Assembly (NCBI GenBank): GCA_965223905.1
Contig: CBDCXV010000011.1
Span: 1,024,001-1,088,000 of the forward strand
Reading direction: 5' to 3'
Source: Candidatus Latescibacterota bacterium
GTDB taxonomy: Bacteria; Latescibacterota; UBA2968; UBA8231
Length of the DNA: 64,000 nucleotides
Numbering within the stretch: the stretch's first letter is position 1; every line of letters starts with the position of its first letter. Below are positions 57,931 through 62,245 of this stretch, in pieces. The notes below the pieces were generated by a model. It had not been told where the DNA came from, did no database searches, and was given only the letters and a program-made list of their open reading frames with translations. Position numbers and translations under genes: made by a program.

Positions 57931-59667
57931 TCAGGCGGTGAAGAAGGCGACGACGGTCCAGCAGATCGCCGCCAGGCCGGCGGCGATGGAGGCCTGGGGA
58001 ATCTGCGTCTTGACGTGGTCCATCAGGTCGCAGCCGGTGCACATCGAGCTGAGCACGGTGGTGTCGGAAATCGGCGAGCACTGGTCGCCGTAGACGCTGC
58101 CGTCCATGACCGCGGCGAAGCAGAGGGTCATGAACAGCTCGGGATGGGCGAGGCCGTGAGCCCCGGCGACCGCCCAGGCCAACGGCATGGCCAGGGGGAA
58201 GGCGACCGCGTAGGTGCCCCAGCTCGTGCCGGTGGAGAAGGCGATGACCATGGTCATGACCTGCAGCAGCACGGGCAGCAGGAAGTAGGGAATCGCCGCG
58301 CCGAGCTGCTCGACCAGGAAGATGCCGCCCCCGGTCTCCTTGCTGATGCCGCCGATGGTGATGGCGAGCAGGAGGATTACGGAACCGAGCACCACCCCCT
58401 TGAGGCCGTCGTGAAAGCCGGAGACGAGGTCCTTGAGCGACATCCCCTTGGCCAGGGCCATCCCAGCGGCGAGCAGCAGGGCCGTGCCGAAGGCCCACTG
58501 CACGTTGGGAGAGCCCCCGACGACGAAGGTGCCGACGGCGATGCCGATGAGGGCGATCAGGGGCAGGAAGAACTCCAGCACGTGCGGGGTGTAGCCTGCG
58601 GGCACGTTGCTTCCCTGCAGCTCCTTTGCGCTCAGGGGGGCGGCCCCGTCGGCGTCGAGCTGGCCGGTCTCGCGGGAGCGCTCCATGGCCGCCTTGAGCC
58701 GTTTGCCGAGGAACAGGGGCTTCTCGATGCTGAGGAGAAGGGTGCCGAGCACGGCGAAGATCGCGTAGAAGCAGAACGGCACGCTCTGGAAGAAGAAGGC
58801 GATGCGGTCGGTCTCGGTGGCGAGGAAGCTGACGCCGGAGACGAAGATGAAGGCCTGGACGTACCCGGGCCAGGCGTTGAAGGCGAGCTGGGAAGCGATC
58901 GGCGAGGCGGTCGAGTCGACGATGTAGGACAGCTCTTCGTGGCTGACTTTTTCGTTGTCGGCGATCGGCTTGACCGTGGTGCCGACCAGCACGGTGCTGA
59001 CCGTGCCCCCCTGGAAGAAGACGACGCCGAGCATCCAGGCGACGAGCTTGGCGCTCCTGGGGCCGCGCACGAAGCGCACGGTCATGAACTCGGCGAACGC
59101 CTTCGCCGCGCCGGTGCGGGACCAGATCCCCATGAGCCCGCCGAGCAGCCAGAGGTAGAGCAGCAGTACCCCGGCGGAGCTCGTGGAGGCCAGCGAGGGG
59201 ATCAGCACATCGCCGGTGAAGTCGTAGCGGCTCAGCACCAGGGCCCCTGAGAGGATGCCGCCGAGGAGGGAAGTGACCGGCTCCTTGGTCAGCCAGCACA
59301 GGAGCACGGCGACTACCGCGGGCAGCAGGGACCAGAAGCCCCAGTGGTGCTTCGCCAGCAGCTGGTAGTAGAAGGTCCGGGGCTCCCCCTCCTCCATTTT
59401 GACCGCGGAGACGAACTCCTTGGTCACCACAGGGGCCTCGCGCGAGCCCTTCATTCTCTCGGGGTTGAGCCGCGCGTCCTCCATAGGGACGGCTTCGAAA
59501 TAGGCCGGCTTGTCCCGGTATATGTAGTAGAGCCTGCCGTCGCTGTCGCTGCGGGCATCGAGGGCGACCTGCTCGACGGTCCAGGTCGGGGCCACGTTGA
59601 TGCCGACGATCCAGGAGACGATCAGGGCGATGGCGAAAACGACGAACTTGCGGATACCTGGGCTCAT
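57931..59667 (-). CDS. Na+/H+ antiporter NhaC family protein
   Basis: ELSYIVDSTASP, FSTGTSWGT, GDQCSPISDTTVLSS, HVKTQ.P. Confidence 0.92.
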   Translation of the reverse strand: MSPGIRKFVVFAIALIVSWIVGINVAPTWTVEQVALDARSDSDGRLYYIYRDKPAYFEAVPMEDARLNPERMKGSREAPVVTKEFVSAVKMEEGEPRTFYYQLLAKHHWGFWSLLPAVVAVLLCWLTKEPVTSLLGGILSGALVLSRYDFTGDVLIPSLASTSSAGVLLLYLWLLGGLMGIWSRTGAAKAFAEFMTVRFVRGPRSAKLVAWMLGVVFFQGGTVSTVLVGTTVKPIADNEKVSHEELSYIVDSTASPIASQLAFNAWPGYVQAFIFVSGVSFLATETDRIAFFFQSVPFCFYAIFAVLGTLLLSIEKPLFLGKRLKAAMERSRETGQLDADGAAPLSAKELQGSNVPAGYTPHVLEFFLPLIALIGIAVGTFVVGGSPNVQWAFGTALLLAAGMALAKGMSLKDLVSGFHDGLKGVVLGSVILLLAITIGGISKETGGGIFLVEQLGAAIPYFLLPVLLQVMTMVIAFSTGTSWGTYAVAFPLAMPLAWAVAGAHGLAHPELFMTLCFAAVMDGSVYGDQCSPISDTTVLSSMCTGCDLMDHVKTQIPQASIAAGLAAICWTVVAFFTA

Positions 59668-59879
59668 CTCTTTCTCCTACTTCTCCTATTGATCCAGATG
59701 AAGAGAGGGGAGCATTGTCGTGGACGATGCCCCGCGATACGGTGATGGGTCACCGGCGGCCGCGGCCCCGTGGGGCCATGGTGCCGGCCGCTTCGATAAA
59801 GCGGGTTGGTTATGTCGTGGTCAAGGGATCTGCCCCGGTCTCTGCCGCGGATTCCCGTGGCCGGTCCCGGCCCTGCCGT

Positions 59880-61175
59880 TCAGCCCAGCAGTTCCAGAAC
59901 GTTGCGATGGGGCCTGCTGTCCAGCCCCTTTTCCGGCCCGCTTCCCGGACCGGGCTGGTACTCGTTCGGGTACCCGGCGACGTACTCGAGCGGGGTCACA
60001 TCCCGCAGCAGGGTGAAACCGTTGCCCGGACCGGGTACGCGGATATTGGCGGTGACGTCGAGGGTGGCCCCGTTTTCGAGCAGCAGCAGCAGCACCGCAA
60101 AGCTGCGGTTGTGGTTCGAGGTGACGGCGTGAAAGACCGGAGTCTCGTTGCCGAAGCCCTCCCTGTCGGGCTGCGCCCTGCGGTTGGCTTCCGCCCCCGC
60201 GGCGATCAGGACCCTGGCGGCCTCGAGGGACCCGTACTCCGCGCAGACATGCAGGAGGGTCGCCCGCTGCAGGGGCGCCCCGCCGAAAAAGCCGCCGAAT
60301 CCCCTGTCCCCCTCCTGGCGGAAGCCGGAGTGCGCGTCGACGAGCCCCGGATCGTCGGCCAGCCTCCCCTGCAGCAGGTCGATCCGGCCCCTGAGGATGT
60401 CCATCTCGGCGCCGTCCGTGTAGTTCGCGCCTGCCTGGACCAGGAGCTCGAGGCATTCCTCGCGGTGTTCGTGCTGATAGGTGTCGAGGACCATGTCGAG
60501 GGCGCTGCCGTCCCTGTCCCTGTAGTTCGGGTCGGCGCCGTGCTCGAGCAGGAACCGCAGGCCGTCGGGGTTCAGGCTCTCGCAGGGTCCCATGATGGTG
60601 CCGCCGCCGTAGTGGGTCGCCGGGTCCACCCCGTGGGCGAGCAGCTCCTCCATCACCGGCAGATTGCCCTGGGTGGCGGCGCGGGAGAGGGCGTCGTCCT
60701 CCGGGTCGGCCCCGCCTGCGATCAGCAGACGGACGATGGCGACCTGGTTCGGTCCCTCGGCGTTGTCCCCGGCGGCGAAGCGCAGGGGCGTACAGCGCCG
60801 GGAGCGGTCGGGGGTCATGTTGACGTTCACGATCTGCGGATGCGCCTCGAGCACCCTGCTCACACCGCCGACGTCGCCGGTGTTTATGGCTTTGCGCAGC
60901 TCTGCGATCGGAGCGGCGAGCCCCGCGCCGGGCTCGGTCGCATCGACTACTCTGGCCCACTCCGAATAGCCGTGTTCCCTGGCGATGACGTGCTGCGCTT
61001 CCTGCAGGGTCAGGTCCGTTCCCGCGGTCCCCGCCGGCACGCCGGACAGGCGCGGCAGGTGGGTGCCGGCACGCACCCGTGCCTGCGTCCGGCCGTCGCG
61101 GTATTCCTTCAACAATTCCTTGGCTTGCTTCTTGAGGTGGGCCAGGCTGGCCCGCTTCGGGAGTCGTCCAGACAT
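59880..61175 (-). CDS. Ankyrin repeat protein with N-terminal 'HLKKQAK...AQ..IAREHG..W' helical domain
   Basis: TPL..AA, LLEHGADPN, TLLH..A repeats; AGGAG/GAGG RBS. Confidence 0.9.
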   Translation of the reverse strand: MSGRLPKRASLAHLKKQAKELLKEYRDGRTQARVRAGTHLPRLSGVPAGTAGTDLTLQEAQHVIAREHGYSEWARVVDATEPGAGLAAPIAELRKAINTGDVGGVSRVLEAHPQIVNVNMTPDRSRRCTPLRFAAGDNAEGPNQVAIVRLLIAGGADPEDDALSRAATQGNLPVMEELLAHGVDPATHYGGGTIMGPCESLNPDGLRFLLEHGADPNYRDRDGSALDMVLDTYQHEHREECLELLVQAGANYTDGAEMDILRGRIDLLQGRLADDPGLVDAHSGFRQEGDRGFGGFFGGAPLQRATLLHVCAEYGSLEAARVLIAAGAEANRRAQPDREGFGNETPVFHAVTSNHNRSFAVLLLLLENGATLDVTANIRVPGPGNGFTLLRDVTPLEYVAGYPNEYQPGPGSGPEKGLDSRPHRNVLELLG

Positions 61176-61305
61176 GAGGATCCTCTCCTGCGAGAGCCCG
61201 AGGTCCGCTGGTTCTCAGGCAGAAGAAGGTTAGGTTGTCTCGACAGATCGGGAACGTGAGGTGGGTTCAACCCTTCCCGCGGACGTGGAGGCTCCCCCGA
61301 AGCAC
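61176..61305 (-). ncRNA. Candidate structured 5' leader RNA of the ankyrin gene
   Basis: Nested pairings GAGCC/GGCTC, GTCCGC/GCGGAC, GGGAA/TTCCC, GGGT/ACCC between promoter and RBS. Confidence 0.55.
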
Positions 61306-61311
61306 GAGCCG

Positions 61312-61340
61312 ATTTTATAAAGCGCCCCCCGGCTGGTCAA
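61312..61340 (-). promoter_or_regulatory. Sigma70-type promoter TTGACC-N17-TAAAAT
   Basis: Near-consensus boxes with exact 17-nt spacer in GC-rich DNA. Confidence 0.75.
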
Positions 61341-61512
61341 CAAAAGGGCAACCTGCGAGCCTCGAGGCCTGGCTGATGCCGGCACCCACCCCGGCCTCGG
61401 GAGATGGACGCCGCGGCTGCCCCGCGTCGCTCTCCTGCCTGAAGCGCCCCGGGCGGGTTCTGGCGGGGGCCGGGCGCAAGGCCCTGCGGACTCCCCGCAC
61501 CTGAGGAAACCC

Positions 61513-62245
61513 ATGCTCTCCGAGCCGCAAATACGGCAGTACACAACCTTCGGTTTCGCCGTCATGCGGAAGGTCCTGCGCCCCGGCGAGATCCCGCTCT
61601 GCGCCGCCGAGCTCGAGCGGGCCCTCGACGGAGACCCCGTTCATGGCTTCCCTGCTGGAAGATCCGCGGATTCTCGGCCCGGCGCAGCAGCTGGGCGGCG
61701 ACGTTCTCGGACTGATCTCCGACGTCAATCGCCGCGTCGGCGACACCCCCTGGCATCCCGACGCCGACGCCGGTTTTCCATGCGGGGTCAAGTTCGCCTG
61801 GATGCTCGAACCGGTCGGGGCCGCCAGCGGCGCCCTGCGCCTGGTTCCCGGCTCGCACCTGAATCCGCTCCACGACGACCTGCGGTCGCTGCTGCTTCCC
61901 TTCCCGCCGCCCGGCGAGCCGCCGAAGGTCCCGGTAGCCGGGGTTCCCGCCCATGCCTGCGAGGCCGGGGCCGGCGACGTAGTGGTCTTCGACCCGCGGG
62001 CCTGGCATTCGAGCGTGGGGGGAGCCGACGGCCGCAGGCTGTGCACGCTGTCCTACCTCGCCGACCCGAAGACGCCCCCCCAGGAGGCCTGGGCGCCGAA
62101 ATATGCCGAAGGGGTGGCGCTCATCCCCGCAAACCACGACCGCGCCGGCCAGCCGTGGTACGACCCCGAGTGGGTCGCCAACCAGGACCGCATGCCCCAG
62201 GCGCCGGCGTTGGATAGAGCGCCTGAAGGAGCTTGGTTTCTTTGA
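61513..62245 (+). pseudogene. Phytanoyl-CoA dioxygenase (PhyH) family, frameshifted near 61630
   Basis: Q..QY.TFGF N-terminus in one frame; WHPD, GALRLVPGSH, GDVVVF...WH in another. Confidence 0.8.

Follow-up and report, generated by a model that had tools for sequence, protein, structure and literature searches.

A pseudoknotted 5′ leader RNA that buries the Shine-Dalgarno sequence and accompanies one N-terminal protein module across bacterial phyla

We analyzed a 64,000-nucleotide stretch of DNA from Candidatus Latescibacterota bacterium (contig CBDCXV010000011.1, positions 1,024,001 to 1,088,000; hereafter the window), in which the minus-strand gene of an ankyrin-repeat protein is preceded by a structured leader RNA. 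This leader is one copy of a widespread pseudoknotted element of the 5′ untranslated region (UTR) that buries the Shine-Dalgarno (SD) sequence, is tied to one N-terminal protein module, and is new relative to Rfam 15. Its fold, its pairing with the SD, its distribution, and its exclusive linkage to the module can all be read from the homologous copies.

A conserved double pseudoknot in the 5′ UTR

The leader folds into two domains (Table 1). In the 5′ domain, the loop of hairpin Pa pairs downstream as helix P0, which encloses the 5′ strand of P1, the unpaired GGNAA joint, and hairpin P2. The anti-SD and P3, a loop with the 3′ strand of P1, and then the returning strand of P3 and the SD make up the 3′ domain, one long hairpin, with the AUG six or so bases after the SD. 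P1 is formed by six bases of the internal loop of the 5′ domain pairing with the apical loop of the 3′ hairpin. The unpaired joints CC, GGNAA, and A are near-invariant. At positions 61276-61284 of the window and in the family copies with GUCCGCGGUAA, P1 5′ strand and joint together resemble what we take to be the conserved CCGCGGUAA of the 16S rRNA 530 loop; the variable base makes chance a likely source of this resemblance.

The window leader was scored with two covariance models: R1, the first, built from five sequences and holding helices P1 and P2 only (63.2 bits, E = 5e-11), and R2, a richer model (80.5 bits, E = 1e-16). Covariation was then read from alignment A4, made with R1 from 36 matches (32 distinct), and from A9, a plain MAFFT alignment of 106 distinct 5′ domains that was not fitted to any helix. 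P1 was fitted in A4; P3, P0, and the anti-SD:SD helix lie outside R1 and are hence independent of how A4 was made.

Five helices are supported by A4, in which 92.2% of cells form standard pairs compared with 87.1% in shuffles, and 18 of 29 pairs change on both sides. None of 500 shuffles reached the observed values, and pairing fell to 45-57% when partners were slid out of register. P1, P2, and P3 are paired in 100% of A4 cells. P1, fitted here, shows both-sided changes at 3 of 6 pairs; it is almost invariant, with A-U, C-G, and U-A compensatory variants in the family set, the A-U variant appearing also on the unfitted alignment A3. A further set, derived from an exact sequence pattern, is uninformative on P1 (pairing 99.8%, zero double changes) because the pattern fixed the 5′ strand. 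The helices to which A4 was not fitted change on both sides at 3 of 5 pairs in P3 (mutual information, MI, of 0.90 between positions 81 and 97), at 4 of 5 in P0 (MI of 0.77 between positions 3 and 40), and at 5 of 9 in the anti-SD:SD helix. Rows with a divergent anti-SD, such as L081 and L094, carry matching SD strands, so that both change in step.

The unfitted A9 gives the same picture for the 5′ domain. P2 is paired at 98.1%, with a closing pair that is C-G (57), U-A (24), or A-U (13), and P0 at 83.6% (85.6% on A4). In 83 of 106 copies, Pa forms 4 bp without a mismatch around a loop of 4-6 nt. It occurs as 16 pair types (GCGC/GCGC, GCGU/ACGC, GCUC/GAGC, and others), and all four of its pairs change on both sides; as a control, single loop lengths of 3, 4, and 8 nt gave 7, 1, and 6 perfect stems. 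Together, Pa, P0, and P2 reach a covariation of 0.306 versus 0.139, a value that none of 500 shuffles attained. In an all-against-all MI scan, the sole well-paired column pairs with high MI are those of the helices described here.

Folded alone, the leader has a minimum free energy of -49.5 kcal/mol, and 139 of 200 shuffles are at least as stable. The single-sequence fold is thus no better than chance (z = +0.52), and the structural signal comes only from homologs. Such a result is what would be seen if there were no RNA function here at all, and only chance complementarity in G+C-rich DNA, a double-stranded DNA operator, or a small upstream open reading frame (ORF). This reading, which we hold to be extremely improbable, is already contradicted by the homologs: model matches reach E-values of 1e-10 to 1e-27 in hundreds of places, the pairs undergo compensatory changes, many G-U pairs fit only this strand, and the linker tolerates insertions and deletions of any length.

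A preliminary description, made from the window alone, had listed five stems in the leader. All exist as complementarity, but only two are conserved: 61279-61284/61203-61208, which is P1 (GUCCGC/GCGGAC), and the hairpin at 61263-61273, which is P2, both paired in every A4 cell and with compensatory changes. The proposed outer stem 61290-61294/61194-61198 gives way in the conserved fold to Pa, where 61291-61294 pair with 61300-61303, and to P3, where 61196-61200 pair with 61216-61220. The stem 61274-61278/61250-61254 has its first arm in the unpaired GGNAA joint and its second in the variable linker, into which the hairpin at 61236-61245 also falls. The homologs' upstream regions, to which that description had pointed, carry both conservation and covariation (A4 and A9; 0 of 500 shuffles). 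Its larger claim, a cis-regulatory RNA, is strongly supported by conservation and covariation across phyla, by a start after a promoter-like box, and by the anti-SD:SD pairing.

The promoter it had named, TTGACC-N17-TAAAAT, is confirmed on the minus strand and is the lone sigma-70-like site between 59700 and 61700 (one site versus a mean of 0.2 in 50 shuffles). Across 111 homologous copies, the distance from the end of the best -10-like box to model position 1 is 10-16 nt in 94 and 12-14 nt in 63, a spacing that places the transcription start at the foot of Pa. In the window, transcription would start near 61305 and give a UTR of about 130 nt up to the ATG, and 61173-61305(-) would then be the complete 5′ UTR of the ankyrin gene. 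A scan of the 59700-61700 region found no terminator-like site overlapping the leader, which makes control of translation initiation its natural reading.

The element is widespread. Of the 76 genomes of the window's family, 47 gave R1 matches (E ≤ 0.01), as many as 16 in a single genome and exactly two in the organism's own 7.9-Mb genome, the window leader and a second copy at 53.7 bits. R2 matched 60 of 151 genomes sampled across the phylum (E ≤ 0.001). By family, these lie in f1 (38 of 63), f2 (5 of 30), f4 (14 of 19), f7 (1 of 1), and f8 (1 of 5); at the same threshold, the 32 genomes of nine other families gave no match. An exact-pattern scan over one genome per species returned at least 120 stretches, 80 of which were made into loci, and R2 confirms 76 of these. 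Among the matches listed, about ten phyla are represented, assigned by record titles: Acidobacteriota, Actinomycetota (Streptomyces, Nonomuraea, Amycolatopsis, Actinomadura, and others), Gemmatimonadota, Verrucomicrobiota, Planctomycetota, Pseudomonadota (Burkholderia and Caballeronia), Myxococcota, Latescibacterota, Armatimonadota, and Eisenbacteria. Further copies were located on second replicons of Burkholderia, in Variovorax, and on a mobilizable plasmid of Methylosinus; this occurrence on a plasmid, on second replicons, and in distant phyla makes horizontal spread of leader and module likely.

On the Methylosinus plasmid pMSC49b (L212, 12628-18987), the gene after the leader is annotated as a hypothetical protein, and the record annotation lists nothing at the leader itself. 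The pair sits a few kb from a ProQ/FinO-family gene and a CDC48-type AAA ATPase.

At protein level, 14 of 61 related genomes have an ortholog of the window protein (E ≤ 1e-20). Orthologs just 34-46% identical share long identical stretches of leader, as does a 91%-identical ortholog of the same genus.

The preliminary description did not recognize the RNA as a named riboswitch. None of the 4,227 models of Rfam 15 matches at the motif in 18 copies, even at permissive thresholds (E ≤ 1, or ≤ 10 for the window). The lone match in window positions 60900-61700 is to mir-4776 (E = 5.4), elsewhere and on the other strand; nine loci from the same family or class gave three unrelated weak matches, none at the motif, and eight cross-phylum loci gave none at the motif. 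Searches of article full text found no link between a structured RNA and bacterial ankyrin genes; motif lists in supplementary files may hold an earlier unnamed listing. The word ankyrin occurs zero times in the main text of the motif-discovery papers PMC2864571, PMC5737381, PMC8632094, PMC11109978, PMC6429828, and PMC7266159. Separately, the mir-3913 model gave matches on both strands (44.5 and 38.7 bits), well short of its gathering score, to a long palindromic hairpin right after the stop codon of an acidobacterial module-ankyrin gene (L078:3948-4060); this hairpin is probably a terminator or a repeat.

Table 1. Parts of the leader and of the ankyrin gene, in window coordinates
Feature	Position	Strand	Remarks
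-35-like hexamer TTGACC	61335-61340	-	read from the sequence
-10-like hexamer TAAAAT	61312-61317	-	17-nt spacer from TTGACC
Whole leader RNA motif	61173-61305	-	putative 5′ end to start codon; model matches cover 61173-61299, Pa adds 61300-61303
Pa, 4-bp 5′ stem	61291-61303	-	61303-61300 with 61294-61291; loop 61299-61295 is the P0 5′ strand
P0	61258-61298	-	61298-61295 with 61261-61258; encloses P1 5′ strand and P2; pseudoknotted with Pa
P1 5′ strand GUCCGC	61279-61284	-	pairs with GCGGAC, 61208-61203
GGNAA joint between P1 and P2	61274-61278	-	conserved, unpaired; nearly invariant in A9 and A4
P2 hairpin	61263-61273	-	61273-61270 with 61266-61263, loop 61269-61267; covariation
Linker between the two domains	61230-61257	-	variable, poorly conserved; length and sequence vary in A4 and A7
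Anti-SD CCUUCUUC, consensus CCUUCUUUC	61222-61229	-	pairs with SD
P3 hairpin	61196-61220	-	61220-61216 with 61200-61196; loop bears P1 3′ strand GCGGAC (61208-61203)
SD GGAGAGG, sequestered	61182-61188	-	mean unpaired probability 0.19 in this copy
ATG start codon of the 431-aa gene	61173-61175	-	covariance model ends on ATG
Ankyrin gene	59880-61175	-	431-aa ORF
N-terminal module, residues 1 to ~84	60924-61175	-	four predicted helices; no Pfam match
Ankyrin-repeat body and stop codon	59880-60923	-	Pfam Ank, Ank_2, Ank_3, Ank_4, Ank_5; E 7e-18 to 2e-10

Linkage of the leader to an N-terminal module

The gene downstream of the leader begins with a module that is not an ankyrin repeat, as the preliminary description had recognized. 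In the window protein, ankyrin models alone match in Pfam, from residue 92 on, with the best stretches between residues 143 and 364 and scores that place the protein among ankyrin-repeat proteins (Ank 64.1 bits, cut-off 21.1; Ank_2 62.1 bits, cut-off 27.3). No Pfam family matches residues 1 to about 85. This N-terminal stretch, with the signature LPxxxxLxxLKKQAK ... AQxVIAREHGYxxW, is a distinct module that also occurs in non-ankyrin proteins.

We counted how often leader and module go together, using 135 distinct leaders and taking as a module any frame that matches the module profile at E ≤ 1e-3. A module frame starts at the start codon directly after 122 of the 135. The other 13 comprise three shortened modules, three cases with the module gene 127-355 nt downstream, three that run off the sequence, and four truncated or degenerate copies. 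Among the 135 copies, none stands before an intact gene or operon without a module. The RNA-protein pair of the preliminary description thus stands as co-occurrence, the partner being the module and not the ankyrin domain. Two of the three cases with a downstream module gene, L049:1501-1617 and L190:101-224, come from two genomes in which the leader precedes a 96-aa ORF with FliG_C only and no module; in both, a tandem-module gene follows 307-355 nt downstream.

The organism's own genome separates module from ankyrin domain. Its second leader directly precedes a 251-aa ORF on another contig that shares the same N-terminal ~85 residues and ends in a bifunctional-nuclease domain (BFN_dom, E = 1.7e-28) rather than ankyrin repeats. 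Since its copies front both ankyrin and BFN proteins sharing the module, the RNA goes with the module and not with the ankyrin domain. The C-terminal domains vary accordingly in wider samples: ankyrin (9), FliG_C (6), FliM (4), sigma-54 AAA+ (3), BFN (1), and Glyoxalase_8 (1) in 26 proteins of the window's family; FliG_C (9), ankyrin (6), MgtE_N (3), and others in 21 proteins of two multi-copy genomes; and, across phyla, ankyrin in 44 of 51 with single cases of TPR, LRR, Imm1, and SnoaL_2. At L029, L037, L062, and other window-family loci, the module is fused to FliG C-terminal domains, in some cases followed by a MotA-like stator part (for L029, the fliG and MotA NCBIfam matches are weak and far below cut-offs). 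With the fusions to FliM-like and sigma-54 AAA+ domains, these form an unusual set of flagellar-switch-like paralogs.

The RNA depends on the module, and the module does not depend on the RNA. Module genes bear the RNA in two of three cases in the own genome, in one of three and three of four in two sister genomes, and in 12 of 12 in genome G095; in G021, all but one bear it, with one counted via its operon alone and one through a weak match. Modules without the RNA are found in L007, L011, L014, L017, and L207 and in internal tandem copies. L007 (G001:C3:2295740-2295982), an 80%-identical ortholog of the window protein in a sister genome of the same genus, shares none of the leader stretches and is a natural case of leader loss. 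Several basic residues are gone from its first helix, and residues 1-32 carry a net charge of +2, compared with +6 in the window protein. The third module gene of the own genome (G000:C10:408955-409179(-), locus L204:201-557; a 596-aa frame) has a degenerate leader remnant directly upstream (12.9 bits, E = 0.057, filters off), and its orthologs in two sister genomes have no significant leader match.

The module forms a large, unannotated family: a profile built from 23 copies matched 9,879 cluster representatives at E ≤ 0.001, of which 4,942 pass E ≤ 1e-10. Among the best 150 of the 9,879, the first copy begins at residue 1 in 132, and 84 hold two or three copies. N-terminal copies are basic (median net charge +3, pI 9.5; first 30 residues positive in 98%) and internal copies acidic to neutral (median net charge -2, pI 5.6), in a comparison whose profile was built from first copies and may be biased thereby. 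An AF2 model of the module gives four helices at a mean pLDDT of 76.4. NCBIfam and PADLOC returned nothing for the module and generic ankyrin matches alone, and the ESM Atlas returned only unnamed clusters of about 90 aa with scores under 0.9. The N-terminal part of PF20066 (Glyoxalase_8) resembles the module: residues 10-75 of the window protein score 11.6 bits (E = 0.29, below the gathering threshold of 23.7), L002 scores 12.6 bits (E = 0.14), and a single protein among 26 of the window's family reaches E = 4.6e-4. Because the third positions of the first 32 codons are free to vary, conservation of the module is at the level of protein and not of RNA; an RNA structure extending into the coding region was rejected on this ground.

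We also looked for another partner among neighboring genes. No conserved neighbor emerged from 104 flanking ORFs, in which 129 Pfam families were found and no family in more than four ORFs. In the window, the ankyrin gene appears monocistronic: an ORF for a 578-aa membrane protein (57931-59667(-)) lies 212 nt downstream on the same strand, and an opposite-strand ORF (61513-62217(+)) begins 338 nt upstream of the ankyrin start codon.

Translational control and the candidate partner of the leader

The anti-SD:SD helix both covaries and buries the SD, giving the conserved structured 5′ UTR a coupled expression platform. Over 131 copies, the SD has a mean unpaired probability of 0.196, versus 0.380 when the upstream part is shuffled, and the probability is below 0.2 in 75 of 131 copies versus 8 of 131 controls. 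In the window copy, the RNAfold centroid pairs 61228-61219 with 61191-61182. Because the folded state is predicted to bury the ribosome-binding site, the element would hold translation down. We rejected an SD-mimic switch, in which the anti-SD would be taken up either by the SD or by a purine loop in the 5′ part: the covariation of the variable P0 bases is with the 3′ strand of P0, not with the anti-SD. Neither the alignment nor the MI comparison showed a conserved alternative pairing that would free the SD.

The fold might serve mRNA stability, localization, or co-translational folding of the module instead of switching translation. The first nucleotides of the transcript are predicted to lie inside stem Pa, and a paired 5′ end can protect mRNA from 5′-end-dependent decay. 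However, SD and anti-SD covary as a helix, which points to control of initiation, and a mere stabilizer would need no two pseudoknots; we consider this explanation very unlikely.

Our tentative preference is for a translational operator that works with the module, probably through autogenous feedback by the module. Such an mRNA always begins by encoding the same small basic helical module, and, the RNA never being found without it, we infer that the module is the factor reading the RNA. The module, either still on the nascent chain as its first part to fold or as free protein, would attach to the folded leader, stabilize the closed state, and limit further initiation. This would amount to autogenous feedback on a portable cassette of leader plus N-terminal module, which may be fused to many C-terminal domains. 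Repression would be the output and the module the ligand. We favor autogenous control because the dependence of RNA on module is one-way, the module is strictly N-terminal, its N-terminal copies are basic, and neither a conserved neighbor nor a module-free target has been found. A fuller version is more speculative, and we put it forward with doubt: that the module is a new RNA-binding domain that clamps its own pseudoknotted 5′ UTR in cis upon leaving the ribosome, in a self-limiting cassette that would have spread horizontally through about ten phyla and become fused to ankyrin, flagellar-switch, sigma-54 activator, nuclease, and other domains.

Several points weigh against control by the module. 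It has no detectable similarity to known RNA-binding folds: Foldseek found nothing in the PDB at E ≤ 0.001 for the module model (pLDDT 76.4), VIA-align against 48,161 chains gave a best Z of 3.8, and a sequence profile search of the PDB returned designed helical repeats alone. N-terminal modules without the RNA are only slightly less basic than RNA-linked ones, a trend drawn from few cases. The 5′ UTR adjoins the N-terminal coding region, so swaps of the C-terminal domain would keep RNA and module together by descent alone, and the linkage is no proof of contact. Up to 16-18 paralogs per genome would cross-regulate unless binding acted mainly in cis. The 3′ hairpin is predicted to be so stable that a way to switch translation on is hard to see. 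The strongest correlation between RNA and protein columns, between the third base of the P2 loop (model position 32 in A7 and A10) and module residue 14 (z = 11.4; A/L 59, U/Y 14, C/Q 3, U/L 2), is suggestive only, of either a contact or a subfamily signature: it tracks subfamilies, and phylogeny confounds it. Finally, very high sequence conservation of the unpaired joints and of P1 across phyla is also expected of a small-molecule aptamer.

This last point leads to an orphan riboswitch, in which a small molecule or ion would lock P1 and the anti-SD:SD helix of a two-domain pseudoknotted aptamer into an OFF state, the module proteins being the gene family under control. The near-invariant joints (CC, GGNAA, and A) and P1 across about ten phyla fit it equally well, and both a conserved, covarying structure in the 5′ UTR and a coupled expression platform are present. 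The build of two domains, linker, and pseudoknot with the SD inside the fold resembles that of translational OFF riboswitches. Other orphan candidates, for example yjdF and nadA in the published excerpts drawn on here, are almost exclusive to one gene family, and C-terminal domains such as FliG_C, FliM, and sigma-54 AAA+ would suit a signaling ligand. Against this, of 135 copies, 0 stand before a transporter or enzyme gene or before any gene or operon that lacks a module; there is no conserved metabolic neighbor, so the gene context offers no pointer to a ligand; the module, on which the RNA depends, does not itself depend on the RNA; and no Rfam aptamer matches. We regard a riboswitch as rather unlikely, though a serious rival.

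Alternatively, the leader could be off by default and opened by some other trans-acting factor or event, such as a small RNA directed to the anti-SD, a helicase or RNA chaperone, 5′ processing, or a physical cue, its tie to the module then reflecting shared descent of a duplicated, horizontally spread cassette. The long anti-SD/P3 hairpin, predicted to be closed unaided, is in keeping with this, as are the lack of a conserved SD-freeing pairing in our alignment and the mobility of the cassette, seen on the mobilizable Methylosinus plasmid and in distant phyla. The factor would, however, have to be common to Actinomycetota, Acidobacteriota, Pseudomonadota, Verrucomicrobiota, and other phyla, and no conserved neighbor was seen; the strong conservation of the 5′ domain and P1 and the inseparability of RNA from module would also be left unexplained. 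We judge it unlikely. CsrA, considered as a partner in view of GGA-like motifs, seems unlikely because Actinomycetota are not known to have it.

If these results hold, they add a large leader-RNA family that Rfam lacks, hundreds of copies of which turned up in these scans in bacteria of soil and water, among them Streptomyces, Acidobacteriota, Burkholderia, and Verrucomicrobiota; an unannotated domain with about 10,000 cluster representatives would also gain its first functional handle. Such strict one-way dependence is uncommon among cis-regulatory RNAs: the RNA was never found without the module, whereas some modules lack the RNA. The dependence poses a sharp question, domain-level autoregulatory cassette versus orphan riboswitch, to which either answer would be new. 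The former would mean a modular RNA-binding domain and its operator, which could serve as a compact part for self-limiting expression; the latter would mean a new class of aptamer in control of ankyrin, flagellar-switch-like, and sigma-54 activator proteins.

Comparison with known regulatory RNAs

Autogenous translational operators include the leaders of ribosomal-protein genes and the thrS operator. Like these, the leader described here is a structured 5′ UTR before the gene of its proposed binder, with the SD occluded in the bound or folded state and with strict co-occurrence of RNA and protein: it accompanies the gene of the candidate binder directly in 122 of 135 copies, and with a short module or a module just downstream in six more. 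It differs in that the candidate binder is an N-terminal module of about 85 aa fused to many unrelated C-terminal domains, that there is no known primary cellular RNA target for the leader to mimic, and that a genome may hold up to 16 copies of the element; binding by the module is our proposal.

ZTP/pfl, SAM-II, and preQ1-II are pseudoknotted translational OFF riboswitches built of two subdomains and a variable linker. The leader shares with them the two domains, the variable linker, a long-range helix, the SD within the fold, and conserved unpaired joints, whereas its helices and conserved bases differ, it has no Rfam match, and its gene context gives no clue to a ligand.

CAT/RAT antiterminators are leader RNAs read by dedicated RNA-binding domains. 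The same is described for the targets of ANTAR domains, in the excerpt of the source used here (PMC8164766). In these systems, as in the one proposed here, a small modular protein domain is paired with a specific leader structure. In the accounts drawn on, however, ANTAR and CAT/RAT domains act on other operons, through simple hairpins, and on transcription termination or translation, whereas our leader is found only on the module's own mRNA and folds into a double pseudoknot.

A parallel to the exclusive linkage comes from orphan riboswitch candidates that keep to a single gene family: the yjdF motif (PMC4793209) and the nadA motif (PMC6859854). As far as the excerpted accounts go, these show the same near-exclusive tie of an RNA motif to one kind of downstream gene, but they go with a whole protein family, while the leader described here goes with an N-terminal domain, whatever follows it.

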